Source: Nitrospiria bacterium
GTDB taxonomy: Bacteria > Nitrospirota > Nitrospiria > DASWJH01
NCBI GenBank assembly: GCA_036397255.1
Contig: DASWJH010000048.1
Span: forward strand, 4,172-68,171
Reading direction: 5' to 3'
DNA: 64,000 nt
Shown: piece after piece, positions 1,940-58,204 of the stretch
How the letters are laid out: each line of letters begins with the position of its first letter
How positions within the stretch are numbered: position 1 is the stretch's first letter
Translations under genes and position numbers: made by a program
Notes under the pieces: model-generated
Database searches by the model: none
What the model saw: only the letters and a program-made list of their open reading frames with translations
What the model was told of the DNA's origin: nothing

Positions 1940-1979
1940 CTAAATAAATAAAAAATCCTTTAATGCTCAAATTGAGCTA
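1940..1979. terminator. candidate weak bidirectional terminator between convergent genes
   Basis: A short hairpin gctca-aat-tgagc sits at 1965-1977 and overlaps the stop codon of the 1977..2780 gene. A T-run (ttttttatttattt) follows about 10 nt later on the minus strand. The stem is only 5 bp, so this is weak. Confidence 0.2.
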
Positions 1980-2780
1980 TAAAAGGCGTTTTCCCATACT
2001 TCGGAATTGTTTAACATCGCTCGATTTAGGAAAGGAAAAATAGGAAGTCTGGGTCTTTTCCGGCTCCTGGAATACAACCCTTCCTTGCTTAATATTTTCC
2101 AATATTTCGATCAGGTAAAGGGCACCTAAAGTTTTAGTCCGTTTGATGAGCATATCAAGCGATTCATGTGGGTTGATCTCAAATTCCCTTTGTAATAAAA
2201 ATTTCCCTCGATCCACCTCCTGATCCATTGTATGGATGGTAATTGCCGAAAATTTTTCGTTATGATACATTGCCCAAAAATTTGGGAGCATTCCTCTATA
2301 TTTTGGAAGTTTCGCATTATGTATATTAATGCACCCCCATTTAGGAACATTCAGTATTGCTTCTTTAAATATTTGGGGGGCAGCAACAGATACAATCACA
2401 TCAACCTTCATATCATTTAATCGTTTTATCATCTCTGAATCGTTAATATTTTTGCAGCGAATAACTTTTATTTTATAATAATTGCAAAGGTGCTCAATAT
2501 TAAAAAACGTTTTAAAGTAGATTTTCCCTAACAATGCTCCCAACATCTTATTTTTTGCGTACCGTAACCCTATCCGAAAAAAGTCAACCGGCCCATAAAA
2601 ACCATACATCTGCTTTATCAATTTGGTGATACTCTTTCCCATTGTTCTACATATAATCAAACCTTGAATTTCATAAAGGTTCTTATAGTTATTGAAAAAA
2701 GTTTCAAAGAATATCCTGATATAAAAAGGATCCTCCTGGGTGACAAAAACGATCTTCATGCTTTCCTCACTGTTTCCCAA
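1977..2780 (-). CDS. formyltransferase-domain protein (Fmt/ArnA-N-like; probably a sugar N-formyltransferase)
   Basis: The block VDVIVSVAAPQIF...INIHNAKLPKYRGMLPNFWAMYHNEKFSAITIHTMDQEVDRG matches the formyltransferase core (the H-x-SLLP-x-x-RG motif, the catalytic His and the downstream Asp). It is the last gene of the EPS locus. Confidence 0.65.
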   Translation of the reverse strand: MGNSEESMKIVFVTQEDPFYIRIFFETFFNNYKNLYEIQGLIICRTMGKSITKLIKQMYGFYGPVDFFRIGLRYAKNKMLGALLGKIYFKTFFNIEHLCNYYKIKVIRCKNINDSEMIKRLNDMKVDVIVSVAAPQIFKEAILNVPKWGCINIHNAKLPKYRGMLPNFWAMYHNEKFSAITIHTMDQEVDRGKFLLQREFEINPHESLDMLIKRTKTLGALYLIEILENIKQGRVVFQEPEKTQTSYFSFPKSSDVKQFRSMGKRLL

Positions 2781-3913
2781 ACACTCTTTTTCTCCCCCTT
2801 TAAAATATTAAAAAGGCCCATTAAACAAGCAATATTCACCACACAAAAATAAAGAGGCATGGAAAGAATCCTAACTTTTCCTCCCTTTTTGTCAATAAAC
2901 CATCCCGCAAGCGCCAATAGATATAAACTGAATTGCATGTAGAAAGTGGTATTGTAAAACCAGGGACCCAATAAAAACCAATTCAAGATAAATAATGCAA
3001 TCATCAAAAGGGGAACCAACCAGCGCAGAACCTTATGTGAGATTAATTGGAACGAAACAAACCCATATTTAAAGGGGTTTAACAAGGCTCGCATATGGAG
3101 AATGCCATTCATCCCCCGAGTAATCACTCTGATTCTCATTTTAAATTCCTCAGAGGACCCCTCCGTTGTCGTCTCAAATGCAATTGCTTCTTTTTCAAAT
3201 GCGATTCGATACCCTTTTTCAAGAATTTTTAAGGGTTCCACCAAATCGCTAATGATATCTCTTTTCAACGGTTCATAAAGATCCCTTCGGACGGAATAAA
3301 TACAACCACAGCAACCCGTTATGGTTTTAATGCGGGTTTGGCAAGATTTAATGAAATTCTCATATTTCCAAAAAAATATAGTTGCTATCCCCATTGCCGA
3401 CCCCTTTTTGGTAATATAATTATACCTCCCGCTGACAGCCCCAATGGTGGGATCCGCATAATTTCGAACAATTTTCCGGATGGCATCTCTTCTATATTCC
3501 GTTGTTGCATCTGAAAAAACAATAATCTCTCCCTTTGCATTTATAACGGCTTGGTTTTGGGTTTCGGTTTTACCAACCCTTCCCTCCACCCGGAGCAATC
3601 TAATATTTTCATACTTCCTACGGTATTCATTTACAATCTGATCGGTTCGGTCCGTTGAACCATCCGAAGCAACTAAAATTTCTATTTTAGAAGGAGGATA
3701 TTCCAAATCTTCTGCGTTTTCGAGTTTTTTGCCAATATCTTTCTCTTCATTATAGGCTGTAATCAAAAGGGTTACCGTGGGTTCATATTTATCATTTTTC
3801 TTAACAGGATTTCGAACAAAAATTGAAAACAGGAAAATTGAGAGTGTATACCCCACATAGACATAAAGGATCAGACCCAAGGTAATCCAAAAAAATAAGG
3901 AAGCCATAATCAT
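2756..3913 (-). CDS. membrane-anchored family-2 glycosyltransferase
   Basis: An N-terminal TM helix is followed by LITAYNEE...VASDGSTDRT...VFSDATT (the DxD region) and C-terminal TM helices. This is a GT2 fold in a synthase-like arrangement. Confidence 0.75.
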   Translation of the reverse strand: MIMASLFFWITLGLILYVYVGYTLSIFLFSIFVRNPVKKNDKYEPTVTLLITAYNEEKDIGKKLENAEDLEYPPSKIEILVASDGSTDRTDQIVNEYRRKYENIRLLRVEGRVGKTETQNQAVINAKGEIIVFSDATTEYRRDAIRKIVRNYADPTIGAVSGRYNYITKKGSAMGIATIFFWKYENFIKSCQTRIKTITGCCGCIYSVRRDLYEPLKRDIISDLVEPLKILEKGYRIAFEKEAIAFETTTEGSSEEFKMRIRVITRGMNGILHMRALLNPFKYGFVSFQLISHKVLRWLVPLLMIALFILNWFLLGPWFYNTTFYMQFSLYLLALAGWFIDKKGGKVRILSMPLYFCVVNIACLMGLFNILKGEKKSVWETVRKA

Positions 3914-3929
3914 ACCCTCTTAAGCTTTT

Positions 3930-4568
3930 TTACAAATCATAAGGGAAAAATTCCGAAAGGTGGGGAAGCATTCTTTGAATAAAATCCCGGTGAAGTGATT
4001 TTTGTTTTTCAAACTCTTCAGGCATGAAATAAAAGGAAGAAATTTTAACTAAAGCAGCATCAGTTCTTTTATTCAATATTGCGTTTAATGCATATTTAAC
4101 TCTCCCTGATCTCTTCCCCACCACACCATAAGAATCAAGGAAAAAAGCATATGAAACCAGTGCAAAGCGATTATTTTTTTTAAAACTTGCCTGGTTAATT
4201 CTTAATGAATGTTTTCCCGAATGGACAATCTTTGTGGAGGTGTGGACCAAACCCCAATTTTTATCCGGTAAAATGTTTTGTCCCCCAAATATATTATTCC
4301 CATGTCTAAATTTACCCCAATAACCAATATATAAAGATAATATATTTTTTTTCTCGTCTTGAAAATTTCTTAAAAAGATTACACCATCAGGAATGATTAC
4401 AATATTTTCAAAGGTTTCTTCTTGACCAGTCTGGGTCCAATTTCCCAATGCTTCAGGAAAAAGTCCAAAACTTGCCCTCAACGGGGTTCCCTCTCCCAAA
4501 GGGAAAAATTCAACATAAAGGGCAGTGATGCCTAATAAAAAAATTACAATAATCCACTTTTGAATCAC
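3930..4568 (-). CDS. EpsI-family exosortase-associated protein (periplasmic, with a single N-terminal TM helix)
   Basis: It lies immediately downstream of the exosortase. It has an N-terminal TM helix (IIVIFLLGITALYV) and is about 200 aa, the size and position expected of EpsI. The similarity is judged by context and size, not by a strong motif. Confidence 0.45.
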   Translation of the reverse strand: MIQKWIIVIFLLGITALYVEFFPLGEGTPLRASFGLFPEALGNWTQTGQEETFENIVIIPDGVIFLRNFQDEKKNILSLYIGYWGKFRHGNNIFGGQNILPDKNWGLVHTSTKIVHSGKHSLRINQASFKKNNRFALVSYAFFLDSYGVVGKRSGRVKYALNAILNKRTDAALVKISSFYFMPEEFEKQKSLHRDFIQRMLPHLSEFFPYDL

Positions 4569-4598
4569 AAAAGTTACCTTTAAAAATTTTTCTATTGT

Positions 4599-5483
4599 TT
4601 ACTGGCCCTTTAAGGAAAATTTAAGCGGGACGTAAAAAAAACATTTTTTTATTACCCGATCAATGGCGAAGAAACCAACAATGCCAATTAAAATAACAAA
4701 AGTCCACGCATAGCCATGAAACCCATCTGCGATATCATTATTAAAATAATAGGAAATAAACCCGATGGCCGAAATTCTTAGAATATTTGCGGCGATCGCA
4801 AGCGGTATTGCCAAAAGAATAAAAAGGGTTCGAATATAATTGGAATGGTACCCTAAATAAGCAAACACCGAACTAATGGCAAGAAAGGATATGATGGTCT
4901 GCATTCCACTACATGCTTCTACGATTTCTAAAGAAAGTGATGATAGATGAATCACATGTCCTTCTAAAAAAACTGGGATCTGGGCCAAACCTAATATGAA
5001 ACTTGAACTTCCCGCAATAAAAAACTTTAGTTGATTTGCGACAAAATAATTAATGAAATATGGAATGGGTAACATAAAAACCAAATAGGAAATGGGGAAT
5101 AAAAGTGCCTTTAACATGGTAAATCCATAAAGTACGTAAATTATTCCTAATAGAATTGTTACCATCCCAATTCCTTCGATAAAAATCTGGTCAAGAAATT
5201 TTCCCCATATAAAAAGCGACAAACCACTAAAAAGATACAAAACGCTAAGGGAACTTGTTTTATTATTTTCATATTCATAAAGAAGGGAAGCAATTTTTTC
5301 CCGATGGATCCAAATTAGGTATACCGATACGATTGGAATCAAAAATCCATGAGAGAACTCCGGATCACTTCTCCACTCAAAAAATAGTGCCCCCCCCAGA
5401 GGATAAAATAACCAAATTAAAAGAATTGTCATTAACAAGTAGAACAAAACCTTAAATTTATTAAGATTAATGGAGTTACTCAT
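4599..5483 (-). CDS. exosortase (Xrt family transpeptidase)
   Basis: It is a polytopic membrane protein containing EIVEACSGMQTII (the conserved exosortase ACSG active-site Cys block) and a downstream Arg (NILRIS). Its start overlaps the upstream GT4 stop (ATGA). Confidence 0.75.
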   Translation of the reverse strand: MSNSINLNKFKVLFYLLMTILLIWLFYPLGGALFFEWRSDPEFSHGFLIPIVSVYLIWIHREKIASLLYEYENNKTSSLSVLYLFSGLSLFIWGKFLDQIFIEGIGMVTILLGIIYVLYGFTMLKALLFPISYLVFMLPIPYFINYFVANQLKFFIAGSSSFILGLAQIPVFLEGHVIHLSSLSLEIVEACSGMQTIISFLAISSVFAYLGYHSNYIRTLFILLAIPLAIAANILRISAIGFISYYFNNDIADGFHGYAWTFVILIGIVGFFAIDRVIKKCFFYVPLKFSLKGQ

Positions 5484-6727
5484 AATTTTTTAGAAAAAAA
5501 CCTATCTAAAGTTTTAATAAGTTTCTCTGAATCAACTTTCCAATTATATTTCATTTCCACAGCTTTTTTCCCGTTTATTCCATAACCAACTCTGGACTCG
5601 TCCCGCAGTAATTGAATTATTTTTTCACCTAAATCATTACTATCACCGTTTTTAAAAATAACGCCGCACTTTTCTTCTTGAACGATCCTTTGAAGGGGGA
5701 GGCAATCGGAAACCACAACGGGCTTGCCCATGGCCATGTAATCAAAAATTTTATTTGGAATCGTAGTATCCGTATGCTCACTCCGTGAATGAGGGATCGT
5801 GCAAACACTGCTTTTTTTAATTATATTTGGAATGAGAGAAAAATTAACCCACCCTTCAAAATGAACAGAATCCTTTATTCCCATTTTTTCCGCACAGTTT
5901 ATTAAATTCCGTTTCTCTGTTCCATCCCCAACAACCCGCAAAATCGCATTTGGAAACTCTTTTAATACTTTAAGCATCGCCTGGATCAAAATCTTTACCC
6001 CTCGATGTTTATCAATTTTCCCAACATACAAAATGCATGGGTTCAATTCGTCTCCATTAAAATTATCTCCTTGAATCTTTTCTTTTTTATCCAGAAACAA
6101 ATTTAAATTAGGTGTGTTCAAAATGCATGAAATCCTATCCTCCGAAAAACCCATTTTAATCAATCGAGTCTTTTGTTCTTCCGCAACAACAAGAATATGT
6201 TTCATGAACTTTAAAGCAAAATGTTCATAGGTTCGGGGTAACCACCCATTCAAAAAGAGAAAAGGCTTATATCTGGGGTTACCATAGGCAATCAGAGCCG
6301 CGGGATAATTCTCAGCCATGTCTAGGACAACAGGCTTTTTTAAAAATTTACCCAGGACCCCCACCATAAGGGCCAAGGGAAGATCTCGAACAACGATCAA
6401 ATCCACCGAATAGTGGGTAAGGACTTTATAGGTTTTGTAAATCCAAAAAGGGTTAAAAAATATAGGATAGGACAACCATCTAAACCTTACATCCAAAAAT
6501 TCTGACAATTTAAAATAGACACGGTGGATTTCCCCATAGGAAAAAGACTCCATTAACGGCAAATTCTTTTTCCCTCGAGAGATCACATGGATCTCATGGC
6601 CCCGCTCACCTAACCGGTTTATCATCTTTTCCAAACGAATATCCCAAGGATATATACAATGCCAAAGGAATGCTATAATTTCAAATTGTCCGTTATTTCT
6701 CTTCTCTTGATTTTTGAGAGGACTCAT
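5480..6727 (-). CDS. glycosyltransferase family 4 (GT-B, retaining)
   Basis: The C-terminal block EHTDTTIPNKIFDYMAMGKPVVVSD is the GT4 E-x7-E donor-binding motif. Confidence 0.8.
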   Translation of the reverse strand: MSPLKNQEKRNNGQFEIIAFLWHCIYPWDIRLEKMINRLGERGHEIHVISRGKKNLPLMESFSYGEIHRVYFKLSEFLDVRFRWLSYPIFFNPFWIYKTYKVLTHYSVDLIVVRDLPLALMVGVLGKFLKKPVVLDMAENYPAALIAYGNPRYKPFLFLNGWLPRTYEHFALKFMKHILVVAEEQKTRLIKMGFSEDRISCILNTPNLNLFLDKKEKIQGDNFNGDELNPCILYVGKIDKHRGVKILIQAMLKVLKEFPNAILRVVGDGTEKRNLINCAEKMGIKDSVHFEGWVNFSLIPNIIKKSSVCTIPHSRSEHTDTTIPNKIFDYMAMGKPVVVSDCLPLQRIVQEEKCGVIFKNGDSNDLGEKIIQLLRDESRVGYGINGKKAVEMKYNWKVDSEKLIKTLDRFFSKKL

Positions 6728-7493
6728 CTTTGGTCAATTTCCATAGTCTATGATAAAGGTCATTTCCAATAAGACTCTTTATGGCATTTTTCATTGTGTA
6801 CTCTACTTCCTTTTTTATAATATACTTTTTTTCCAATTTGACCATTTTCTCAAAAGTAGGAAAATCGGTATTTTCTGAAACGATTAATCTCCCTAAAATA
6901 GGAAATTTGCCGCTTCTCCATTTTACCCTTGGCAAAGATACACATACTGCTTTGTAACCCATCTTTTTGGAAATTTCCAAAACAGATTCAGTGAACCGGC
7001 CACCGGGACAGGAAAAAAAAGATACCTTCTTCCCGGTAATATCTTGTAAAATATCTTTTGATTTTTCCAGTTCTTCGTAGATCTGATCTGGTGCTAAATC
7101 ATTCAGAAATCTGTGGGTATGAGTATGAGATTGAATAGACATTTGATTCTTTGCCATTTCCTTAATATGGTTTTCTTCGAGTAAATCCTTTCCTTTCCCA
7201 ATGAATTGTGTGGCAATAAAAAATTCCCCAGAAAACCCATAGCTTTTTAATAAAGGAAGAGCTAAGGTATAGTTACTCAGTTGTGTATCATCAAAAGTGA
7301 TGACTATTTTTTTTTCAGGACCAAATCCATCCTTTTTTATAATTTGGAATAATTCTTCTAAAAGAATCGTTTGATACCCGCTAGATTTTAAAAAATCAAG
7401 TTGCCTTAAAAATTTATCCTTTGAAACGGCATAAGGGTGTACACTAATTTCTTTTTGCACAATCTCATGATACATTAAAATAGGAATAATCAT
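6693..7493 (-). CDS. polysaccharide deacetylase (NodB homology domain)
   Basis: It contains ILMYHEI...ITFDDTQLSNYTLALPLLKSYGFSGEFFI, which includes the NodB TFDD metal-binding motif. Confidence 0.75.
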   Translation of the reverse strand: MIIPILMYHEIVQKEISVHPYAVSKDKFLRQLDFLKSSGYQTILLEELFQIIKKDGFGPEKKIVITFDDTQLSNYTLALPLLKSYGFSGEFFIATQFIGKGKDLLEENHIKEMAKNQMSIQSHTHTHRFLNDLAPDQIYEELEKSKDILQDITGKKVSFFSCPGGRFTESVLEISKKMGYKAVCVSLPRVKWRSGKFPILGRLIVSENTDFPTFEKMVKLEKKYIIKKEVEYTMKNAIKSLIGNDLYHRLWKLTKDESSQKSREEK

Positions 7494-7525
7494 TTAGTTT
7501 TCAATCATAAATTGATAATCTTAAT

Positions 7526-8653
7526 TTATTTAGCTAATTTTTCTTCTAACATAAGAGCATCAGCGAAAAACTTTGTCGCCCAATTCGGAAATGCAAATCG
7601 CTGGTACCCGCCCCAGATCGGGTGGGATCCTGCAATCGCCCCTCTTATTCTGGGATCTTGAATGGACAATAGCTGTCGCTCCTTTAGAAAATTATTAATT
7701 TTCCTTGCCCCAACAAAAAATTTTTTATCTCCAATTATTTCAAAAAGCCGGAGGAAAATAATGGATATTTGGGCATTCCCTGTTAAACAAGAGAATTTAG
7801 ACCCAGTTTCCCAGTTAGGGCCAAAAGTGGCCGAAAAAGAACCGTCAGAATTCATGGAATGAAGTAATTGGGAAGCCGACGTAATAGCGCGATTTATATA
7901 TTGTTCTTCCTTTAAAATTTCTCCTGTTTCAAGAATCCCTCGTATCGTATAGGCAATGGTATGGGTATAGGGATAGGTATGGGTGGCCAGTTTGAAACCG
8001 GTTTTATCAAACCATCCATTGGTATTTTGATTTTTAAGGACCCATTCAATATTCTTCTGCGAAGCCTCCTTGTAAACTGGTTTTTTTGTTAGGATAAACA
8101 TTTGAGCCAATGCCCAAGCTACGCGGGAATAATATGAGTGGGGAATATTGTTATATGTATAAGTACTCCAGGACCCATCCTTATCCTGGACACTGACTAA
8201 CCAATCACTTGCTTTCTGTGCTGCTTCAAGATATTTTTCATCCTTCCCATGGGTATATAATCGGATTAATCCAAAAACAATCTGCCCGGTATCAAAAACA
8301 AATTTCCCTAACCGGGACCCCCAAGGCCCTCCAAAAAATGAACCATCCTTGTTTTGGATGGAAATCTCCCAATCCCCCATTCTAAAGGCTCGATCCAAAT
8401 ATTCATTGGAACCCGTCAACCGGGCATAATTTAAAAACGTCGGAATGATATACCCTGTTGTTTCCGGGTATGATGGAGACCATCCAAAAATTAAAGAATA
8501 CCTTAGGGAAACGCCATCGTCATCGGTGGCATCTTGAGCAGTGGACAACCAATCGATCGCAGCCTTAATTCGGCCAAAATTAAATAAATTTCTCTCGGTT
8601 TTTCTAATACCTTGTTCAATTAAAAAACATGTTATAAGGCCTTTAAGATTCAT
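7526..8653 (-). CDS. hypothetical protein with repeated aromatic-rich DGS[FW] motifs (possibly an alpha/alpha-toroid or prenyltransferase-like repeat fold)
   Basis: It contains NKDGSFFGGPWG, DKDGSWSTYTY and SDGSFSATFGPNWE repeats reminiscent of toroid repeat enzymes. I cannot place it in a named family from sequence alone. Confidence 0.3.
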   Translation of the reverse strand: MNLKGLITCFLIEQGIRKTERNLFNFGRIKAAIDWLSTAQDATDDDGVSLRYSLIFGWSPSYPETTGYIIPTFLNYARLTGSNEYLDRAFRMGDWEISIQNKDGSFFGGPWGSRLGKFVFDTGQIVFGLIRLYTHGKDEKYLEAAQKASDWLVSVQDKDGSWSTYTYNNIPHSYYSRVAWALAQMFILTKKPVYKEASQKNIEWVLKNQNTNGWFDKTGFKLATHTYPYTHTIAYTIRGILETGEILKEEQYINRAITSASQLLHSMNSDGSFSATFGPNWETGSKFSCLTGNAQISIIFLRLFEIIGDKKFFVGARKINNFLKERQLLSIQDPRIRGAIAGSHPIWGGYQRFAFPNWATKFFADALMLEEKLAK

Positions 8654-8686: not shown

Positions 8687-9892
8687 TTAATTGGAACCTG
8701 GGTTTGATTTCAGCAATTGTTGGTAACTCTTCTCGTAATTTTCTGCCATTATTCGCGAGGAAAATTCTTTAAATACTTTTCCATAACCCCTTTCTGAAAA
8801 TAATTGGGCTTGTTCTTTATCGGAAATGAGAAATTTTATTGAATCCGCTAATTCAACCACATTTCCAGGGTCCACTAACAGCCCATTAAATTTATCCTCG
8901 ATGAGCTGAGGAATTGCCCCTACTCTTGTAGATACAATCGGTTTTTTAGAGGCCATGGCTTCAAGCAAAACCATTGGTAATCCTTCATATAGGGATGTAA
9001 TAACAAAAACGTCCATAATCTTATAAAGTGTTGCCACATCCTTCCTTAATCCTGCAAAAAATGTATTTTCGGCAATTCCCAATGATAAACTTAAACCATG
9101 CAAATTCTCCTTTTCAGGACCTTCACCTATTATGAGGAAACATGTCTTTGGGTACTCATGAACGACGATCTTTGCAGCACGTATAAAGTTTTCAAACCCT
9201 TTTTCAGGAGATAACCTTCCCACACATCCCACAATTGTACATTCCTTTGGAACCCCAAGTTGATTTCGGAGGAGGTTTTTATCCACCCAGGCCTGAGATT
9301 CATATTCGTTAAGATTAACCCCATTATTTATTATTTGGATTTTATTTTGTTTAATTCCGTATTTCACCAGTTCTTCCTTCACTAACGGCGATACGGCTAT
9401 TATTGAATCAAAAAATCGCAACAAATATTTGTCTATACGAGAATACCACTTAAGCTTTTGGTTGAAGGTGTTCCAATTATGACATGTCGCTAATCGATGC
9501 ACCTTTAACCAATATGATGCCAACAGGGCATAAAAATCCGATTTATAATCATGGGAATGAATAATATCAACCTTTTGCTCTAGGAGAAACTTGCGAATCT
9601 CACGTATACTCCTTATATCCAATCTTCCCTCACAAGGGAAAATCACGTTTTCAATTCCTTTTTCGTGAGCCCTTTCAGCAATTTCTGTATGAGGATTTTT
9701 AGAATTTCTTAGGACGCCAATAATGGGTTTAAATCCAAGAACAGGGCCTTCTTGGGCAAGGGACAACAGGATAGTCTCACCGCCAAATATACCTAAGCTG
9801 CTGCATAAGTGCAAAACCTTGTATGCCATAAAATTAACAAGAGAAATTAATTTAACCCCTTGTTGCTTCGTAGGGTAGGTGGGCTTTCCCAA
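8687..9892 (-). CDS. glycosyltransferase family 4
   Basis: It has a GT-B layout and contains ITSLYEGLPMVLLEAMASKKPIVSTRVGAIPQLIED (the E-x7-E motif). Confidence 0.8.
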   Translation of the reverse strand: MGKPTYPTKQQGVKLISLVNFMAYKVLHLCSSLGIFGGETILLSLAQEGPVLGFKPIIGVLRNSKNPHTEIAERAHEKGIENVIFPCEGRLDIRSIREIRKFLLEQKVDIIHSHDYKSDFYALLASYWLKVHRLATCHNWNTFNQKLKWYSRIDKYLLRFFDSIIAVSPLVKEELVKYGIKQNKIQIINNGVNLNEYESQAWVDKNLLRNQLGVPKECTIVGCVGRLSPEKGFENFIRAAKIVVHEYPKTCFLIIGEGPEKENLHGLSLSLGIAENTFFAGLRKDVATLYKIMDVFVITSLYEGLPMVLLEAMASKKPIVSTRVGAIPQLIEDKFNGLLVDPGNVVELADSIKFLISDKEQAQLFSERGYGKVFKEFSSRIMAENYEKSYQQLLKSNPGSN

Positions 9893-47660: not shown

Positions 47661-47678
47661 CACGATCCTCTGAAGACT

Positions 47679-48203: not shown

Positions 48204-48252
48204 TTTCTTTAATTAGGAAAAAAATCCTCCCCTTTAAATAATAAGGGTTTCC

Positions 48253-51222: not shown

Positions 51223-52224
51223 TCAATAGGGATACCCATAATATCTTGTGAACCCGGATTCCATTCCGTTCAAAACAATTGCCCACACTTTCTCGGCAGG
51301 AAGACCAGCGAAAGCTTTTAGGACTAAGTCTCTTGGTGTCATTCCTGCCCTAACAACAAATAGGATTCCATTCACCAGTTCCGAAAAAATATTCATGTCG
51401 GCTAATGGTAAAACCGGAGGTGAATCGATAATGATGTATTCAAATTCCATTTCGGCCTGGGAAAGAGCCTCAGCCATTTTTGGTAAACTTAAAAGTCTGG
51501 TTGAATTTTTCTCATTGCTTCCAGCCGGTAACATAAAAAGTTTTTCGGTCAAAAAGGGATAGATACATTCCTCCAATGAATTATTTCTCGCAAGTATATC
51601 CACCAAACCTTTACCACATGGGGATTTTAAATATCGATGAAGATCCGGTTTTTTTAAATCTCCTTCAATAATAAGTGTCTTTTTATTAAAATCCTTGGCC
51701 ATGGTAACTCCCAGGTTTACAGACGTAGTGGTCTTTCCTTCCCCCTTTACAGAACTCGATATTGCAATGCGCTTTTGTTTTCCTTCCCCATTCATATGTT
51801 TGAATCGGGAATATAAAACCCGATACTGTTCACTGGCCATGGACTGGGGTTCCAAAAGTGCGATCGGATGCTCATCCATTTTCCTTTTCCTCTCCCCTTT
51901 TACAATTTCCCTTCTAACATTTAGGTCTTTCCTGCTATTTGAAAGCGTTAAAGCCCGGTGATCTATTTTTAAATATTTAAAATCCTCATCTTTGACCCCG
52001 GCAAAACGGTATGGGCTAAAATGAGCTCCATTGTTTTTCTTATTCATTACCAACTTATAAGCAGTAAGAATTTTTTCAAGGTTCATTTTTTCTTCTGTTC
52101 CGAGAAAACGACCATTTTTAAGACCAATAAATTCCTTAACAGCCAAATCAAAGGCTTTTTGTATTTCTTCCCTATTTGACTCAGGGTTAATTTTCAAAAT
52201 TTTAAAACTTTCTTCTTTTTTCAT
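51223..52224 (-). CDS. BY-kinase (bacterial tyrosine autokinase) cytoplasmic ATPase subunit
   Basis: Walker A is ISSSVKGEGKTTTSVNLG. The C-terminal tyrosine cluster is RYYGYPY. It is coupled by ATGA to the upstream chain-length determinant. Confidence 0.75.
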   Translation of the reverse strand: MKKEESFKILKINPESNREEIQKAFDLAVKEFIGLKNGRFLGTEEKMNLEKILTAYKLVMNKKNNGAHFSPYRFAGVKDEDFKYLKIDHRALTLSNSRKDLNVRREIVKGERKRKMDEHPIALLEPQSMASEQYRVLYSRFKHMNGEGKQKRIAISSSVKGEGKTTTSVNLGVTMAKDFNKKTLIIEGDLKKPDLHRYLKSPCGKGLVDILARNNSLEECIYPFLTEKLFMLPAGSNEKNSTRLLSLPKMAEALSQAEMEFEYIIIDSPPVLPLADMNIFSELVNGILFVVRAGMTPRDLVLKAFAGLPAEKVWAIVLNGMESGFTRYYGYPY

Positions 52225-53735
52225 TCTTTAAATAATTTTGGGTTCAAAAATTTTTTCTGACCTTCTTTTTTTTCCTTGATAGGACGGAATTTTATTTTTT
52301 TATATTTAGAAAATTTTGGAATGGATACAACCAAAGGACCCTTCATGACACCCTCTAAATCCTCAGGTTGTCTGAAACAGGGATTCAACATCTCAATCAA
52401 TAAAGCAAGCCCGAAACCTGAGGCTGCTCCAGCAAAACTTCCAGCAAGCAGGAGCTTTCGAAGATTTGGTTTATATGGTTTTTCTGGTAAATTGGCGGGG
52501 TCAATGATGCGAAAACGCTCCCCTTGTTGCCGTTTTTCGAGATTTTCCGAAAGCCTCGCATTTATACTTTTCCCCAATAGGTTCTGATAATTCCCTTGGG
52601 ACATATCGTAATCTCTTTGGAGTTTTTTAAGTTCAACTTCTAACATTGGCGTACGAGCGACTCTTGTTTCATAGCCTCTAATCTTCTCTACCAAAAGTTT
52701 CCCGGTCACTTCCAAGTCTTTAATCTCCCTTAAGATTTTCTGGTGTTGATCAAGGAGACGTTTGTAATTTTCATTTTCCCGGAGAAAAGGGATATCACCT
52801 GTAGGGTTTGATTTTGTGGTGGATTGGGAAAGCTGAGCCTCCATTTCCCGTATTTGTTTTTTTAAAAGGATGACATCGGGATAATTTTCTTTATATACAA
52901 TCCGAAGATTTTTGAGTTTTTCCCTTAATTGTTGAAGCGGCATATTTGGTTCCTCAATAGAAGACGCTGAATTTGTAGTGAAATTGAGGGCTTCTTGTTT
53001 CAATTTCAAAATTTGATTCTCTAGATCCTGGGCTCGATCTTCCTTTGAATTTATTAAATCTCTGTTGGCTTGAAAATTAATTTGAAGCCGGTCTAAGGTT
53101 CTTAGGTTTGAGTCTATTTCACTCGGCAATCCCCCTCTATTTTTCTCTTTAAACCTTCTGATATTCTCATCAAGGCTGTCCATTTGTTTTTTGGCTTCCG
53201 CCAATTCTTTCTGAAGGAAATTGGTTGTAACCTGGGCCTGTTGTTCCCGGACTTTAAGGTTTTCTTCAATGAAGCGTGAAGCGATTCGATTGGTTACGTT
53301 CATGACTTTTTCAGGGTCTTTTCCAACAAAACTGATCGAAAATGCCTGTTTTCCTACAACATCCAATTGAATATTTTTTTGCAGCTTTTCAACAACCGAT
53401 TCCTTTCCTAACTCAGCAAACTCTTTAGGAAAAAGGTCCAATTCGTCCCGCAGTTTAATTAAATTGGTCCGGCTCATTACCTGCTGGCTAATTGTTTTCA
53501 ACCGTTCCGAAATTGGAGTAGTTACAGTTGATTTAACGTAATCCTGGGGTATTATTTGGGGTTCGACTAAAATCATTGTGGTGGACCGATACGCTTTAGG
53601 GAGCCAATAACTTAGCCCTAGGCTAACCCCCAGGGCTACAATGATTGGAAAAAAGATCCAATATCTACGTCTAAAAAAAACATCAATATATTGGAAGATC
53701 ATCTTTTGAATTTCAGGTGAAAATTGGTTATTCAT
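52221..53735 (-). CDS. polysaccharide chain-length determinant (PCP/Wzz-like, transmembrane activator of the BY-kinase)
   Basis: There is an N-terminal TM helix (YWIFFPIIVALGVSLGLSYWL), a long periplasmic coiled-coil region (KQMDSLDENIRRFKEKN...), and a C-terminal TM helix (LLAGSFAGAASGFGLALLIE). Confidence 0.7.
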   Translation of the reverse strand: MNNQFSPEIQKMIFQYIDVFFRRRYWIFFPIIVALGVSLGLSYWLPKAYRSTTMILVEPQIIPQDYVKSTVTTPISERLKTISQQVMSRTNLIKLRDELDLFPKEFAELGKESVVEKLQKNIQLDVVGKQAFSISFVGKDPEKVMNVTNRIASRFIEENLKVREQQAQVTTNFLQKELAEAKKQMDSLDENIRRFKEKNRGGLPSEIDSNLRTLDRLQINFQANRDLINSKEDRAQDLENQILKLKQEALNFTTNSASSIEEPNMPLQQLREKLKNLRIVYKENYPDVILLKKQIREMEAQLSQSTTKSNPTGDIPFLRENENYKRLLDQHQKILREIKDLEVTGKLLVEKIRGYETRVARTPMLEVELKKLQRDYDMSQGNYQNLLGKSINARLSENLEKRQQGERFRIIDPANLPEKPYKPNLRKLLLAGSFAGAASGFGLALLIEMLNPCFRQPEDLEGVMKGPLVVSIPKFSKYKKIKFRPIKEKKEGQKKFLNPKLFKE

Positions 53736-53752
53736 TCATAAGGTCCTTTATG

Positions 53753-54949
53753 TTAGAAAGACGGAAAAATCGCTAAAAGTTGCATTTGAACCCGGTTTCT
53801 ATAAAGATCTTCACCCAGATTTCCACCAGATACCTGCCGGTTATGGGTATAAGAAACATTTCCAGATAACCATTTGTTAAATAAATAGTTCAATGTTGCA
53901 TTCAATCTAAAAAATTGAATGTCAACCTCCCCCCCCTTTATGGTTTTATTCGTACCATAACTTCCCCCCATTTGACCGGTAAGGAACTGTGTAAAACTCT
54001 TTGAAAGTGATACCCTTACATTTTGATGTTGAACCAAGCGATTGACCAAACCGGTTGACCTAATATCCTGGTTATATGAAAAATTAATTTTAGTATTTCT
54101 TTCCAACAAAAAACCTTTATCGATATTGCCTGAAAAAAAAGGCCTATATTCCTCGGTCCCAGCTTCGGCCAAATGAAGAACTCCCCCCTCAACCTGAAAA
54201 CTAAAAGTGGAGGAAAAAATATGCCTCCATCCCAGAGTGGCCAAATAAGTATCGGAGCTGTCCTCCCCATCAAACGAAACATTTTGATAGCGGGCAGCAA
54301 GGGTCATTGTATCATTTCGAAATAATTGGTAGGCATAGGTAGACTTAAGCGATTGCCCAAAACGATCCACAAGAGTTGGATCGGAATATTCTGTAAGGGT
54401 ATTTGTATATTCTAAAGACGCCTGAGCGCGCCGAGAAAGTTGATATCGGTATTCTGCTCCAAAATGATTCCGAAAGGCCGTGTTTCTCCCTACCTGGGTT
54501 CCATCATCTTCACCTGTAACCACACCGGGGTCTAACTCATAATCAGGTAAATCAGGCGTTATGACAAATCTTTCGGTAAAGGTTAGTTCTCCCCTCTTGT
54601 TAAAACGGTTAAGGAGCCGATCAAGGTTTAAGTCCAACCCCCCATTCTGGTTATAACGATTCAGTTGGGAGTGGTCTGCGTAAACATCCAAACTTCCTCT
54701 ATAGGTTAAAGCCGTGCTCACAAGAGGCCACTGGTAACTGACCCTTAAAGTTGGCGATATAGATGTAATATAATCAGATTCACGGTCAGAACCGCTGGAA
54801 AATATATTGTCATCAAAGGTTTCTGTGAACGACATAGCAGGTTCCACTATCAATTCACCTTTTACAATCTCGCAAGTTCCCATAATTAAAAAACCCCAGA
54901 TAAAAAGAAATAACCCAATAAAAAAAATAAAGTTTCTCATAAAGGCCAA
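53753..54949 (-). CDS. outer-membrane beta-barrel protein (exosortase/EPS-locus-associated OMP)
   Basis: It has a signal peptide and alternating amphipathic beta-strand pattern throughout, and ends ...QLLAIFPSF, a C-terminal Phe OMP signature. Confidence 0.55.
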   Translation of the reverse strand: MAFMRNFIFFIGLFLFIWGFLIMGTCEIVKGELIVEPAMSFTETFDDNIFSSGSDRESDYITSISPTLRVSYQWPLVSTALTYRGSLDVYADHSQLNRYNQNGGLDLNLDRLLNRFNKRGELTFTERFVITPDLPDYELDPGVVTGEDDGTQVGRNTAFRNHFGAEYRYQLSRRAQASLEYTNTLTEYSDPTLVDRFGQSLKSTYAYQLFRNDTMTLAARYQNVSFDGEDSSDTYLATLGWRHIFSSTFSFQVEGGVLHLAEAGTEEYRPFFSGNIDKGFLLERNTKINFSYNQDIRSTGLVNRLVQHQNVRVSLSKSFTQFLTGQMGGSYGTNKTIKGGEVDIQFFRLNATLNYLFNKWLSGNVSYTHNRQVSGGNLGEDLYRNRVQMQLLAIFPSF

Positions 54950-54980: not shown

Positions 54981-56039
54981 TCATGGCACCAGAATTGTGT
55001 CTCCCGGTTTTAGAAAAATGTTTTCCATTTCACCACCTGACACAATATCATCGTATTTTACTTTGATCTTGGTTTCTGGGTACTCTTTATAACCCTTTCG
55101 TAAAATAATTATTTTATTTCGGGACGCAAATTGGGTAAAACCTCCTGCTAGAGCTAAGGCTTGTATTACTGTTACATTGCTTTTCAACTGATACTTTCCA
55201 GGATTAACTACCTCCCCCATCAAATAAACCACATAACTATTGATTTCTTGGACAATTACAGTAACCACGGGATTTTCCATATATTCTTTTAAAAGGCCGG
55301 CAATTCTTTCCCGAAGTTGATTGGGTTTTAAACCCGCTGCCGAAACATCCCCAATTAAGGGAAAAGAGATTATCCCATCGGGCCTAACCTTTACTGTTCT
55401 GGAGAGAACGTCATTTTTCCAAACCATTATTTCGAGAACATCTTCAGACCCGATTAAATAATCTTTACCGGATTCGGCTAATGCGTGTTCCCTTTGAAAA
55501 TCATTTTCAGTGGAAAGGGCAAGGGAAACTAATTTATTGCCATCATTCCCGGAAGGGAAACCCTCATCAGTAGCAGAAAACCTGGAATCAAAAATTTCTA
55601 CAATGATTTTTCCTTCTTCACCTCTCACCCGAGTCGTTGCAGAAGGGTTTAGGTTGATTTCAAACTGAACGCCCTCCTTTGGTTTTCGGGTTTCCCGTGG
55701 ATAAATATCCAACACGGCCCCACGGTTAACTACCATCGGTTTGATGTGTTTACCCAGCGTAACCCCTGGAATTTCCAGTATCAGTTGGTGAGATTCTGGA
55801 ACTTTGATGGCTCTATAAAAAAGAGGCCCCTCGCCTTGAATCACCACCTCGGTCACTTCTGGCAAATCATTGATCATAAGATTTTTTATTTGAAAAAATT
55901 CTTGGTGTTGACTGTTTTTTGGACTTGAAGTCCCCATTACACAACCGGAGAATAGGAGATTGAATAAAACACAAGCAATGATCATCTCGTAACGGTTGAA
56001 ACAGGACCACATCTCTTTCCAAAAATTTTCCTTTTTCAC
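54981..56039 (-). CDS. polysaccharide export lipoprotein (Wza-like, Poly_export plus SLBB domains)
   Basis: It has a lipoprotein signal with lipobox LLFSGC. GSEDVLEIMVWKNDVLS...VRPDGIISFPLIGDVSAAGL is the polysaccharide-export motif, and it has a C-terminal SLBB. Confidence 0.7.
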   Translation of the reverse strand: MKKENFWKEMWSCFNRYEMIIACVLFNLLFSGCVMGTSSPKNSQHQEFFQIKNLMINDLPEVTEVVIQGEGPLFYRAIKVPESHQLILEIPGVTLGKHIKPMVVNRGAVLDIYPRETRKPKEGVQFEINLNPSATTRVRGEEGKIIVEIFDSRFSATDEGFPSGNDGNKLVSLALSTENDFQREHALAESGKDYLIGSEDVLEIMVWKNDVLSRTVKVRPDGIISFPLIGDVSAAGLKPNQLRERIAGLLKEYMENPVVTVIVQEINSYVVYLMGEVVNPGKYQLKSNVTVIQALALAGGFTQFASRNKIIILRKGYKEYPETKIKVKYDDIVSGGEMENIFLKPGDTILVP

Positions 56040-56105
56040 CTAAAACTCCTTCTTTATCCGATATTCCCCCTAAAACCGACTGAATTTTATTGCCAAAATT
56101 TTCTT

Positions 56106-56624
56106 TTATTCTTGGGGAAGACAAATCAAATTTCCACCCTCTGCCCGGGCTTTTTCTAACATTTCCTCTGCTTTTGAAATCAGGCTTTCAATGTCATTGG
56201 AATGGGTTGGAAAAGAGGCCCCTCCGATACTAATCGTTTGCTTCCGCTCCATTACCTTCACAATAAAAGTATAATCCTGTATCCGATCTTTAATTCTGTT
56301 TCCAATCTGACAGGTGCTTTGATAGTCTGCATGATGCAGAATTAAGAAAAACTTATTGTTTGCAATCCGGCCTATAATATCCGTTCCCCTAATCTCATCC
56401 CGAATAAGGTTTGCAAATGTTTTGAGCAAAGAATCATCCGAGAACGGAAAAGGCTCTTCCTCCTTCTTCATTTGGTCGGGCTGAATAATCAAGAGGGAAA
56501 AAAAGTAAAGGTATCGAACTGCTTTTCGAACTTCTAAATCAAGAAGGTATTCAAAAAACTCACGATCTAGCGTTTGTGTGACCCGATCCAACACGACATG
56601 CCCTCCTCTCTTTGGAATGGGCAA
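56106..56624 (-). CDS. stand-alone degenerate GGDEF-domain protein (catalytically inactive; candidate c-di-GMP/GTP sensor)
   Basis: YLYFFSLLIIQPDQMKK aligns with the l-DiDhFK region, and GRIANNKFFLIL sits where R-x-GGDEF should be. ISIGGASFPTHS...EEMLEKARAEGGN aligns with the SiGva...AD-aLY-AK--GrN C-terminus. Confidence 0.5.
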   Translation of the reverse strand: MPIPKRGGHVVLDRVTQTLDREFFEYLLDLEVRKAVRYLYFFSLLIIQPDQMKKEEEPFPFSDDSLLKTFANLIRDEIRGTDIIGRIANNKFFLILHHADYQSTCQIGNRIKDRIQDYTFIVKVMERKQTISIGGASFPTHSNDIESLISKAEEMLEKARAEGGNLICLPQE

Positions 56625-56770
56625 AGCCCTTCCATCAGCTCAAGTAAAAACAATCCCAATTTTCAGAAAAACTTCAACTAGTACCTAATACAATTTTTCG
56701 TTTTTTCATTACGGGAAGAATATCGAAAAAATTTTTACCGGGTTTCCCCATTCGAAATCTTAATTTATCC

Positions 56771-58204
56771 TTAATTTTTTTCTTCCCAATCGCACTCTTT
56801 AATTTTATATAAAAGGGCTTTATAGCTAATTCCCAAAATTTTGGCCGTTTCCTTTCGATTCCAATGGGTATCTTGTAGAACTTTTTTAATCAATTCGGAT
56901 TCGGCTTTACGGGCAGCGGTTTTTCCCGTTTTTTTCAGGGAAAAACTAGACGAATCCAGCGAAACAACGGAAGAAACAACCGGTTCGGGGAGGTTTTCCT
57001 CCATCTTTGAAGAAGAAACATTTAAATTATTCTCTTTTTCCTTGAAGTAATTTCTCACAGCAGCATCTTCATTTCCTAAAATAACAATTCGTTTAACCAT
57101 ATTTTCTAATTCCCTAACATTTCCCGGCCAATCGTAATCCAAAAAACGTTTCATATTGTGGTCAGAGATTCCTCTCATTTCACGGTTAAACTGTTGACCG
57201 TACTTTCTAACAAAGATTTCAGTTAAAGTCGGAATATCCTCTTTCCGATCTCTCAGGGGGGGAAGGTGAATACTGACCACATTTAAACGGTAATATAAAT
57301 CCTCCCTAAAGGTTCCTTGGCGAACGGCCACCTCTAAATGTTTATTCGTTGCCGCAATCACCCGCACATCCACTTTAATTTCATTACCTCCCAACCGGGA
57401 AAACTCTCCATCTTGTAAAACCTGAAGAAGTTTTGCTTGAAGAGAAAAAGGAATATCACCTATTTCATCCAAAAATATAGTACCGTGATTTGCAAATTCA
57501 AACTTTCCAGGGTTACTGCGATGAGCCCCCGTGAAAGACCCTTTCTCATGCCCAAATAGTTCGCTCTCCAATAAACCGTCTGGAATAGCTGCACACAATA
57601 CCTTCACAAAAGGGCGATCGACCCGTGTGGAACAGGTATAAAGGGTTCGGGCAACCAACTCCTTCCCAGTTCCACTTTCTCCCCCAATTAAAACCGTAAT
57701 ATCAGTTTTGGCCACCTGGTCAATTACGGTCCTAACCTCCTCCATTTTCCTGCTTGATCCAGTTAAAAGGTGGGGGTGATTATTTTTTGGTTTTACCCGT
57801 TTTTCAGTTTCCTCCTTCTTCATTCCTTCTTGGGGAAGGGAGCTACAAACTTTGCCAATCTTTAAAATAAGATCTTGATAATCCAAAGGTTTTTTTACAA
57901 CTTCAATTCCATCTCGATCGTATAAGTTCCGATTGATTGGAGGGATTTGCTGTAGGTCAGCCAAGAGAATGACAGGAATTCTTTTTCCATGGTTACTCAA
58001 TTGCTTTACCGTTTCTAAGGAATTCGAACCAAAAGGAAGATTAAATAAAATGAGATTGGGGTCAATGGAAACGGCTTCGGAAAGGGTATCTGGGCCATTT
58101 CGGGTCGAAAAAATTTTATACCCAAAGGACGTTAAAAAACTTTTAAGATAACTCTTCATTAATGGGTCATTATCAACAATTAACACCTTAAATTCGTTTC
58201 CCAT
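56771..58204 (-). CDS. sigma-54-dependent response regulator (NtrC family; PrsR-like EPS regulator) with an atypical receiver
   Basis: The receiver VLIVDNDPLM has Asn where the phospho-acceptor should be (LILFNLPF). AAA+ has VLIGGESGTGKELVAR, and GSFTGA is a GAFTGA variant. The C-terminal Fis-type HTH is ETAKILGISYKALLYKI. Confidence 0.8.
   Translation of the reverse strand: MGNEFKVLIVDNDPLMKSYLKSFLTSFGYKIFSTRNGPDTLSEAVSIDPNLILFNLPFGSNSLETVKQLSNHGKRIPVILLADLQQIPPINRNLYDRDGIEVVKKPLDYQDLILKIGKVCSSLPQEGMKKEETEKRVKPKNNHPHLLTGSSRKMEEVRTVIDQVAKTDITVLIGGESGTGKELVARTLYTCSTRVDRPFVKVLCAAIPDGLLESELFGHEKGSFTGAHRSNPGKFEFANHGTIFLDEIGDIPFSLQAKLLQVLQDGEFSRLGGNEIKVDVRVIAATNKHLEVAVRQGTFREDLYYRLNVVSIHLPPLRDRKEDIPTLTEIFVRKYGQQFNREMRGISDHNMKRFLDYDWPGNVRELENMVKRIVILGNEDAAVRNYFKEKENNLNVSSSKMEENLPEPVVSSVVSLDSSSFSLKKTGKTAARKAESELIKKVLQDTHWNRKETAKILGISYKALLYKIKECDWEEKN

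Follow-up and report, generated by a model that had tools for sequence, protein, structure and literature searches.

The DNA examined here is a 64,000-nucleotide stretch of a Nitrospiria bacterium genome (GenBank assembly GCA_036397255.1, contig DASWJH010000048.1, positions 4,172 to 68,171 of the forward strand), hereafter the window, which is largely occupied by one run of predicted exopolysaccharide (EPS) genes that includes an exosortase and its partner EpsI. In environmental bacteria, EPS loci linked to an exosortase are believed to produce the matrix found in flocs, granules and biofilms, and very few of them have been studied. The run comprises 48 consecutive open reading frames (ORFs) on the minus strand, none shorter than 172 aa, that reach from 58204 to 1977 (56,228 bp, by ORF table and sequence extraction). 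This bears out an earlier note on the window, which had described about 47 co-directional genes with mostly short gaps: of its 47 junctions, 36 measure no more than 40 nt, and at 14 the genes overlap or touch. The other gaps measure 42, 49, 59, 61, 63, 66, 72, 99, 132, 146 and 182 nt, the three widest being at 51041-51222 (182 nt), 56625-56770 (146 nt) and 47547-47678 (132 nt), and the four largest fall upstream of cysD or, in the case of the 99-nt gap, inside the predicted distal operon. Plus-strand ORFs within 58204-1977 have no family match and are short shadows of the minus-strand genes.

All 48 proteins were searched with NCBIfam profiles and 20 of them with Pfam; scores are given against the model cutoff where both are quoted, and cluster genes are on the minus strand throughout. 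The cluster encodes a Wzx/Wzy pathway with PCP-2b/OPX export: a priming polyprenyl-phosphate glycosylphosphotransferase (PGT), a Wzx flippase, a Wzy_C-family protein, a polysaccharide co-polymerase (PCP), a bacterial tyrosine kinase (BY-kinase), a phosphotyrosine phosphatase and an outer-membrane polysaccharide export (OPX) lipoprotein. Given that PGT, Wzx, Wzy_C, PCP, BY-kinase and OPX are present in one copy each, the span is best read as one pathway. Hidden Markov model (HMM) searches uphold all the gene identities proposed in the earlier note (response regulator, Wza-like lipoprotein, outer-membrane protein, chain-length determinant, BY-kinase, sugar transferase, exosortase and EpsI), as well as its 5 GT4, 3 GT2 and 1 GT-C glycosyltransferases, Wzx and Wzy, the last being the Wzy_C protein. 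To these can be added three CE4 deacetylases, two methyltransferases and three enzymes of the alkaline-phosphatase superfamily.

Exosortase, EpsI and the XrtA models

The exosortase (4599-5483, EACSG motif) passes the general exosortase model TIGR02602 (179.9 versus 105.55), and EpsI (3930-4568), 30 nt downstream, passes TIGR02914 (62.5 versus 42.8). All named subtype models stay below their cutoffs: XrtA TIGR03109 (159.2 versus 208), XrtW (179.3 versus 425), XrtD (156.7 versus 400), XrtV (136.4 versus 313) and XrtB (94.1 versus 275). Since the scores against XrtW, XrtA and XrtD are nearly equal, the protein belongs to no named subtype, and we place it in an unnamed clade. A search of 5.8 billion proteins returned only 11 relatives, 36-75% identical, and Cys191, Arg236 and His256 are invariant in the alignment of the 11 clade members; identity to the next matches does not exceed 37%, and their annotations read exosortase A or are generic. 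The best exosortases in GTDB representative genomes are 29% identical and belong to Acidobacteriota and Planctomycetota. The exosortase sequence itself was found unchanged on 14 metagenome contigs.

The earlier note had put the exosortase at the core of the cluster and likened the whole to the XrtA/PEP-CTERM loci known from Proteobacteria. Neither the position nor the host agrees with this, as the exosortase and EpsI are the fourth- and third-last genes, about 45 kb from the export genes, and the host is a Nitrospiria metagenome-assembled genome. The likeness in architecture holds for an exosortase-linked Wzx/Wzy EPS locus with XrtA-like parts, but not for the XrtA cutoff, which the exosortase fails, nor for PrsK, PrsT and PEP-CTERM proteins, which are lacking in the window. 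Similarly, the trusted cutoffs are passed for TIGR02602 and EpsI and for two of the nine XrtA-locus models, the transferase TIGR03013 and the deacetylase TIGR03006, but not for the seven others: XrtA (TIGR03109), chain length (TIGR03007, short by 14 bits), tyrosine kinase (TIGR03018), export (TIGR03027), outer-membrane protein (TIGR03016), PrsR (TIGR02915) and amidotransferase (TIGR03108). No match to PrsK (TIGR02916), PrsT (TIGR02917) or the TIGR03015 ATPase was found among the 48 proteins, and no PEP-CTERM tail (TIGR02595/PF07589) in the window, by six-frame regular-expression search, or in 4 kb beyond. We consider it probable that the cluster is one Wzx/Wzy-dependent EPS locus of an uncultured Nitrospiria bacterium joined to an exosortase/EpsI sorting pair, which is related to XrtA and forms a separate, rare clade.

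The order of the genes is kept in related loci, for which we use our own numbers (L001 and so on). Beside exosortases that are 76%, 60% and 53% identical, the distal order runs GT-C or sulfatase-family, Wzx, Wzy, (methyltransferase), sulfatase-family, GT4, alpha/alpha-toroid, deacetylase, (GT4), exosortase, EpsI, GT2 and formyltransferase. The proximal order, namely outer-membrane protein, PCP, BY-kinase, dehydrogenase, NusG paralog and a long leader, is kept in L015, whose NusG paralog is 62% identical. Past its leader, the conserved order of L015 continues with a nucleotide pyrophosphatase/phosphodiesterase-family (NPP) gene and genes for a flippase-like protein, a glycerol-3-phosphate dehydrogenase-like protein, an epimerase/dehydratase (SDR), a methyltransferase, a GT4, a YdjM protein and a carbamoyltransferase.

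Secreted proteins rich in fn3 domains are encoded to the left of window position 1 (L001, 15812-18124 and 18283-18816, both minus strand). Their tails read ...[ST]AGGCGF, 11-12 residues, P[VT]D[MF]AMF, a hydrophobic stretch and a basic cluster, and related tails (GGCGM ... A[DE]M, helix, basic) adjoin the 76% and 60% exosortase relatives. Common to L001, L007 (15984-16802, minus strand) and L008 (16782-17672, minus strand) is [ST][SA]GGCG[FM], a spacer of 11-16 residues, a hydrophobic helix and a basic cluster. NCBIfam sorting-signal models gave no match to these Cys-containing tails at E up to 1; PEP-CTERM proteins are found instead in loci with canonical features (L017, L015 and L010). The GGCG tail may be a new sorting signal, handled by this exosortase or by a CPBP-type protease. 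Cys-containing tails have been assigned to CPBP 'myxosortases', not to exosortases (Haft 2023 preprint), and hence a link between tail and exosortase is a lead rather than a finding.

NusG paralog and ops-like leader

The gene at 47679-48203 encodes an RfaH-like specialised NusG paralog. It scores 112 (cutoff 144.5) against the RfaH model TIGR01955, above its scores against the UpxY, LoaP and NusG models; its best PDB sequence matches are RfaH at 6e-16 versus NusG at 3e-8, and the best match to its predicted fold is autoinhibited RfaH (5ond, RfaH-ops complex, E 2e-10). By HMM, PDB sequence search and fold, the paralog is closer to RfaH than to NusG. The AF2 model gives its C-terminal domain short strands at 113-140 and one helix at 147-164, with a pLDDT of about 80.

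Comparison of the 132-nt leader between this gene and cysD with the leaders of orthologous paralogs (L015, L016 and L017) uncovered an element at 47581-47611 (minus strand), consisting of a hairpin, ACCGGT-TTTGC-ACCGGT (47595-47611), followed by AT and the ops-like sequence AGCGGAAGCCTG (47581-47592). The element, GCACCGGTATAGCGGAAGCCT, aligns with leaders that follow orthologous NusG paralogs and have the form CCGGT-loop-(GC)ACCGG-AA-N-GGCGG(T/G)AGC. These carry GGCGGTAGC in L015, L016 and L138 and GGCGGGAGC or GGCGGCAGC in L017 and L139; L138, the closest relative with the NusG-then-CysD order (paralog 80% identical), has ACACCGGGATGGCGGTAGCC. The 12-nt ops of E. coli is GGCGGTAGCGTG, and GGCGGTAGC is its core. 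The site in the window agrees with this ops at 9 of 12 positions and departs from it at positions 1, 6 and 10; most related leaders also have C at position 10, and the window differs from its relatives at two positions. Exact E. coli ops words (GGCGGTAG and similar) do not occur in the leaders of the cluster.

A search tolerating up to 3 mismatches found a single copy of GCACCGGWANRGCGGNAGCYT in the window (0.01 expected), and the leader pattern was found on at least 120 metagenome contigs. The matches listed comprise 108 non-redundant metagenome loci, of which 56 have a homolog of the NusG paralog on the element's strand and at most 450 nt away; the element stands just downstream of it in 31 of the 56, as in the window, and just upstream in 25. 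Neighbouring genes in the linked loci encode Wza, PCP, BY-kinase, PGT, a TIGR03006-type deacetylase, AsnB or an exosortase. Where the element is upstream, it often comes past the BY-kinase gene and within a longer conserved block (...AATGCACCGGAATGGCGGCAGCTTGCCCGGACTGTACAAAT). In both arrangements the element is the hairpin and GGCGG(T/C)AGC (L018-L137). The other 52 matches look like chance, given that most fall in long open frames and have near-random degenerate positions.

RfaH is recruited at ops in leaders, where ops forms a small hairpin of the non-template strand with a flipped-out T, and in E. coli position 6 makes a key contact (PMC7819879). RfaH is reported to be about 95% proteobacterial and to have no gene neighbours in common (PMC7593976). 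No paper among those searched mentions both RfaH and exosortases. The ops-like site of the window may be co-evolved or weakened.

No Rfam family reaches its gathering score in the window, and the leader gave nothing relevant at E up to 10, with JUMPstart unmatched. Both arms of the hairpin are conserved in sequence, so covariation is uninformative; a lengthened alternative stem exists in L022 and L107 only, and the fold z-score of the leader RNA (-1.9) is not decisive. A match to a sigma-54 promoter in the same leader (47600-47615, 2 mismatches) was rejected because neither L015 nor L017 keeps its -24 GG and because its bases form part of the conserved hairpin. Between the stop of the NusG paralog and the ops-like element there is a further hairpin, GGGGTTTTATTTTGAAACCC, followed by TTATTCC (47640-47665, minus strand), which may act as a weak terminator or attenuator in front of the proposed antitermination site.

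The RfaH-like/ops-like pair directly precedes the last 39 genes (47546-1977, 45,570 bp), within which the largest gap is 99 nt. Sites resembling terminators are no commoner than in shuffled sequence, and past the leader the minus-strand intergenic gaps contain none; intrinsic terminators were rejected as operon boundaries, because their counts match those of shuffles and the only intergenic one on the minus strand is a weak 5-bp stem at 48230-48247. The earlier note's suggestion of one transcription unit or a few long ones is thereby refined rather than proven, and it gains from the lack of a terminator excess and from the position of the pair. Genes 58204-47679, for regulation, export, priming and the NusG paralog, would form one to three units, and 47546-1977 would form one operon, with the paralog loading onto RNA polymerase at the ops-like leader site and suppressing pausing and termination. 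Judged from the sequence, a very long transcription unit is plausible.

Regulatory, export and decoration genes

Coordinates are those of the longest ORFs, so some true starts lie further downstream; the exosortase is 277 or 294 aa long in the JGI and PGAP calls, and one GT4 is 380 aa, not 401 aa. The NCBI protein accessions are consecutive from HEX9757363 (exosortase) to HEX9757410 (PurL), and since their offsets agree with the gene list, the PGAP gene set is identical. The cluster sequence is already public and machine-annotated by NCBI. Upstream it is bounded by purQ-purL-purF and a divergent REC-GGEEF diguanylate cyclase (58618-59550, plus strand; TIGR00254 191.2; GGEEF and RSHD motifs), a probable cyclic di-GMP (c-di-GMP) input.

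First in the cluster comes a sigma-54 enhancer-binding response regulator (56771-58204) with REC, AAA+ and HTH domains, which is NtrC/AtoC-like over its full length; the PrsR model TIGR02915 fails (323.3 versus 502.6) and its alignment covers only the AAA+ part. Manual alignment to NtrC puts an apparent Asn at the expected phospho-acceptor position of the receiver, and there is no adjacent kinase gene. It is followed by a lone degenerate GGDEF domain (56106-56624; TIGR00254 78.3 versus 37.4) with ANNKF for GGDEF and a kept RGTD I-site, a candidate c-di-GMP receptor. Together with the divergent cyclase, which is intact, these two resemble a c-di-GMP switch and point to c-di-GMP control; the signals acting on the cluster are probably sigma-54 and c-di-GMP. 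A sigma-54-like -24/-12 site, TGGTACAATCCTTGCA (58284-58299, minus strand), about 80 nt upstream of the regulator gene and with 1 mismatch to TGGCAC-N5-TTGCW, is a weak lead only; such matches in the window are not above shuffles (20 found, 21 expected).

The OPX lipoprotein (54981-56039) is Wza-like, with Poly_export and SLBB domains in its C-terminal half (PF02563 and PF10531 pass, TIGR03027 fails at 150.7 versus 180), a plausible lipobox (LLFSGC) and an N-terminal extension of 190 residues without family match; against the EpsY model NF041843 it is below cutoff (139 bits, cutoff 320). Its likely partner is a beta-barrel outer-membrane protein (53753-54949; PF10082 BBP2_2 58.7 versus 23.7; TIGR03016 fails at 62 versus 90.85). 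Then follow the PCP, or chain-length determinant (52221-53735), just under the TIGR03007 cutoff (265.2 versus 278.85), the BY-kinase (51223-52224) with a C-terminal Tyr cluster RYYGYPY (TIGR01007 passes at 112.2 versus 108.05; TIGR03018 fails at 140.6 versus 230.65), the large priming PGT (49646-51040; TIGR03013 506.7 versus 393.35, passing) and a nucleotide-sugar dehydrogenase similar to UDP-ManNAc dehydrogenase (48253-49584; TIGR03026 455.7 versus 189.8).

The first gene past the ops-like element encodes CysD, a sulfate adenylyltransferase subunit (46755-47546; NF003587 302.6 versus 195), and the second a CysN-like GTPase subunit (45591-46754; TIGR02034 266.8 versus 336.1, below cutoff) that lacks the adenosine 5'-phosphosulfate (APS) kinase domain. 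Further down lies a sulfotransferase of the 3'-phosphoadenosine 5'-phosphosulfate (PAPS) type (28480-29631; PF13469 123.5 versus 27; RSGTT and RDPRD motifs). Given CysD, CysN and a sulfotransferase with PAPS-binding motifs, the product is predicted to be sulfated. Sulfated EPS and clusters bearing sulfotransferases are established in cyanobacteria (PMC8205485), and published studies describe sulfated polymers from granular sludges, from Pontiella and from microbial mats; sulfation here is therefore interesting and not unprecedented.

Next to the CysN-like gene are an NPP enzyme (44214-45569; PF01663 151.4 versus 23), the UDP-GlcNAc 2-epimerase WecB (43002-44180; TIGR00236 491.8 versus 210.15) and a polysaccharide deacetylase of the XrtA-system type (42118-43011; TIGR03006 396.8 versus 276.2, passing). 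After these come a FAD oxidoreductase of the glycerol-3-phosphate dehydrogenase family (40396-42099; PF01266, PF16901), an NAD-dependent SDR-type sugar epimerase/dehydratase (39384-40487), whose start is probably internal as HMM matches begin at residue 39-41, a SAM methyltransferase (38612-39346) and a GT4 (37436-38605), the last two from the NCBIfam scan. A NodU/CmcH-type carbamoyltransferase (35651-37432; PF16861 201.6, PF02543 133.4), a YdjM-family membrane hydrolase (34995-35591; PF04307 73.6) and an AsnB-type (asparagine-synthase-type) amidotransferase (33034-34995) follow; the amidotransferase passes TIGR01536 (467.2 versus 267.1) and fails TIGR03108 (519.2 versus 816.9). A 221-aa protein with a twin-arginine signal, SRRIFM (32296-32961), has no Pfam or NCBIfam match, and it is followed by a GMC-family FAD oxidoreductase without a signal of its own (30676-32280; PF05199 81.5). 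The two resemble the small and large subunits of periplasmic enzymes of the gluconate 2-dehydrogenase type, and the 221-aa protein is a probable small subunit for the oxidoreductase.

On either side of the sulfotransferase gene are a flippase-like membrane protein (LPG_synthase_TM; 29653-30633; TIGR00374 73.3 versus 43.2) and a GT4 (27316-28479, NCBIfam scan), after which come a LamG-like domain fused to a VanZ membrane domain (26119-27252; PF13385 76.9, PF04892 50.3), two ArnC-like GT2 proteins, the first of the polyprenyl-phosphate sugar synthase type (25116-26159; NF007986 192.3, below cutoff) and the second scoring 115.7 against the same model (24108-25109), and an APH-family phosphotransferase or kinase (22991-24133; PF01636 32.8 versus 23.2). 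A CE4 deacetylase with a PgaB-like N-terminal part (21930-22955, NCBIfam scan) and a FemAB-like GNAT protein (Acetyltransf_6; 20856-21929; PF13480 93.8) precede an ATP-grasp ligase fused to a low-molecular-weight phosphotyrosine phosphatase (19088-20851), in which the ATP-grasp part is N-terminal and the phosphatase spans residues 437-576 (PF01451 87.3). The phosphatase is a likely partner of the BY-kinase 30 kb upstream.

Downstream of a TIGR03088-like GT4 (17919-19079; 171.4 versus 409, failing) are a sulfatase-family enzyme of the alkaline-phosphatase superfamily (16525-17922; PF00884 153.8), a PMT_2/ArnT-like GT-C (14884-16521; PF13231 55.5), a Wzx-type MOP flippase (13331-14860; PF01943, PF13440), the Wzy_C-family protein, a polymerase or possibly a ligase (11991-13334; PF04932 73.3; TIGR03097 69.1 versus 188.1, failing), a SAM methyltransferase (11230-11970, NCBIfam scan) and a second sulfatase-family enzyme (9901-11130; PF00884 110.5). 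In the alignment the first sulfatase-family protein has T-P-P-A-H where the formylglycine motif C/S-x-P-x-R is expected, and the second likewise lacks the motif. Both have Thr, and no Pro or Arg, at the motif position, and both are cytoplasmic, without signal peptide. Because they lack C/S-x-P-x-R they are unlikely to be true sulfatases, and because both are kept in related loci they are probably biosynthetic enzymes acting on phospho- or sulfo-esters. The cluster ends with a GT4 (8687-9892), an alpha/alpha-toroid protein that is C5-epimerase-, lyase- or GH88-like (7526-8653; PF13243 44.1, weak PF06662 and PF07470), a CE4 deacetylase (6693-7493), another GT4 (5480-6727), the exosortase and EpsI, a PgaC/NodC-like membrane GT2 (2756-3913) and, as final gene, a formyltransferase (ArnA N-terminal/Fmt-like; 1977-2780; PF00551). 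The two GT4 proteins, the CE4 enzyme and the GT2 were identified in the NCBIfam scan.

The downstream boundary is a convergent gene for a secreted protein at 110-1909 (plus strand). The convergent gene beside the cluster always ends in D-T-x-P-P-x-x-P-T-G-[LF]-x-[VI]-x-stop, for example DTIPPGIPTGFNVTVK and DTNPPTAPTGLRILP, and this end is found in the window gene and in L007 (13519-15939), L008 (14962-16785) and L140 (13878-14372), all three on the minus strand; the remainder of these proteins differs (choice-of-anchor Q domain, PKD domains). About 4.2 kb to the left of window position 1, three contigs with a 599-aa protein, from different samples and assemblers, stop near one point (L012, L013, L014, L001), which suggests a repeat or a strain-variable region.

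Interpretation and known systems

In the pathway that we propose, the PGT would prime a polyprenyl carrier, WecB and the UDP-sugar dehydrogenase could supply a precursor of the N-acetyl-mannosaminuronic type, and five GT4 and one GT2 enzymes would build the repeat unit. Wzx would then flip the unit and the Wzy_C protein would polymerise it, with chain length set by the co-polymerase, the BY-kinase and the phosphatase fused to the ATP-grasp enzyme, and the short Wza-like lipoprotein and the beta-barrel protein would export the product. From the gene content the polymer is expected to be heavily decorated, with sulfate, carbamoyl, methyl and amide groups, N-deacetylation or formylation, phosphate and amino acids as candidates, and the two ArnC-like GT2 enzymes, the flippase-like protein and the GT-C may add a periplasmic side-branch.

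Several points weigh against this picture. No APS kinase was found among the 48 cluster proteins, so the PAPS supply rests on a gene elsewhere, and the Wzy_C protein may act as a ligase and not as the polymerase. The NusG paralog stays below the RfaH cutoff, and its modelled C-terminal domain looks like a strand/helix hybrid. At ops position 1 the window has A, versus G in all 56 linked sites, and at position 6 it again has A, where the linked sites have T, C or G and never A. Internal promoters inside the cluster are possible. GC content is 0.34-0.37 at 2001-8000 (the exosortase-distal module) and at 50001-54000 (the PCP/BY-kinase region) and 0.40-0.46 elsewhere, a range that suggests a mosaic origin.

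A bolder version of the same picture holds that the clade sorts GGCG-tailed fn3 proteins (seen in three clade loci), not PEP-CTERM proteins, into a sulfated and decorated EPS made from a 45-kb RfaH/ops-processive operon, and that this RfaH/ops pair is ancient and widespread with exosortase-type EPS loci outside Proteobacteria. We regard it as conceivable and rather doubtful.

It is also unlikely that the gene run is a mosaic of independent glycan pathways (EPS plus Arn-like lipid A modification or protein glycosylation) with internal promoters, the hairpin and ops-like site being a promoter or operator. The GC blocks fit such a mosaic, as do the Arn-like parts (the formyltransferase, two ArnC-like GT2, CE4 enzymes and the GT-C), the degenerate state of the ops-like site and the distal gaps of 59-99 nt, which could hold promoters. 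However, there is only one each of PGT, Wzx, Wzy_C, PCP and OPX, the Arn-like genes do not group together but lie dispersed between EPS genes, and the gene order is kept as a block in relatives. Moreover, the leader element tracks the RfaH-like gene in the 56 independent loci among the matches listed, and its core equals that of E. coli ops.

That the locus is simply a bigger standard XrtA/PEP-CTERM system, with PrsK/PrsR/sigma-54 control and its PEP-CTERM proteins encoded elsewhere, is very unlikely: XrtA-locus models are the best match for many parts, with TIGR03013 and TIGR03006 passing and TIGR03007 short by 14 bits, a sigma-54 regulator heads the cluster, and L017, with the same NusG paralog and leader element, is canonical (PrsK/PrsR, four PEP-CTERM proteins and an exosortase-EpsI fusion), but here the exosortase misses the XrtA cutoff, scores equally against XrtW and XrtD and belongs to a clade of only 11 members at least 36% identical, with next matches at most 37%, the PrsR, tyrosine kinase, export, outer-membrane and amidotransferase models fail, PrsK, PrsT, the TIGR03015 ATPase and any PEP-CTERM tail in the window and 4 kb beyond are absent, and the regulator receiver apparently has no phospho-acceptor Asp.

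Read as one exosortase-linked Wzx/Wzy locus, the cluster shares much with systems already described. The EPS system of Myxococcus xanthus (EpsY/EpsX) likewise has Wzx/Wzy, a short Wza-like OPX and a separate beta-barrel protein, but the OPX here falls below the EpsY cutoff (139 versus 320) and has the 190-residue N-terminal extension. The Synechocystis xss cluster for synechan (PMC8205485) is also of the Wzx/Wzy type and includes a sulfotransferase, whereas the present locus has one sulfotransferase with CysD and CysN in the operon, is exosortase-linked and non-cyanobacterial, and is about three times larger. It would provide a concrete genetic basis for sulfated, highly decorated matrix polymers like those detected by chemical means in sludges and mats. 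With the Arn system for lipid A aminoarabinose it has in common a formyltransferase, ArnC-like glycosyltransferases, CE4 enzymes, a flippase-like protein and a GT-C, but all scores are far below the Arn cutoffs and the genes are dispersed through the EPS operon; the acceptor is more likely a polymer than lipid A.

As in the RfaH/ops system of enterobacteria (PMC7819879, PMC7593976), a specialised NusG paralog and a short leader element head a long, here predicted, polysaccharide operon. The gene for the factor belongs to the very locus that the factor would serve, as is the case for UpxY of Bacteroides capsule loci. Unlike RfaH, the paralog scores below the RfaH cutoff, its site has two substitutions and is preceded by a conserved CCGGT...ACCGG hairpin, and, whereas RfaH is reported to have no common neighbours (PMC7593976), paralogs of this type are consistently linked to EPS or exosortase clusters. 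An RfaH-like factor with an ops-type site, regarded as mainly proteobacterial, is hence a recurrent built-in feature of such clusters, and the pair offers a testable explanation for end-to-end transcription of a 45-kb, 39-gene operon.

The closest comparison is with the XrtA/PEP-CTERM-EpsH system (Haft et al. 2006, PMC1569441), which includes a 40-kb region of Rhodospirillum rubrum, the Methylobacillus eps locus and the zooglan/PEP-CTERM floc system of Zoogloea. Both have a Cys/Arg/His exosortase beside EpsI within an EPS locus, a TIGR03013 transferase, a TIGR03006 deacetylase, an AsnB-type amidotransferase, a split PCP and BY-kinase, a short OPX with a beta-barrel protein, and a sigma-54 regulator. 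They differ in that the exosortase of the window is below the XrtA cutoff, PrsK, PrsT, the TIGR03015 ATPase and a nearby PEP-CTERM protein are lacking, the host is Nitrospirota and the span is 56 kb, whereas the R. rubrum region as published covers 40 kb. The locus here also adds genes for sulfation and carbamoylation, Arn-like genes and an RfaH-like gene. We conclude that it works like an XrtA-type EPS and sorting locus and is not a member by the curated definitions, outside which it shows an exosortase-EPS system in Nitrospirota. The general kind of system is already known, and this locus is a distinct variant of it, with an unnamed exosortase clade, extra decoration including predicted sulfation, and a built-in RfaH-like/ops-like pair.

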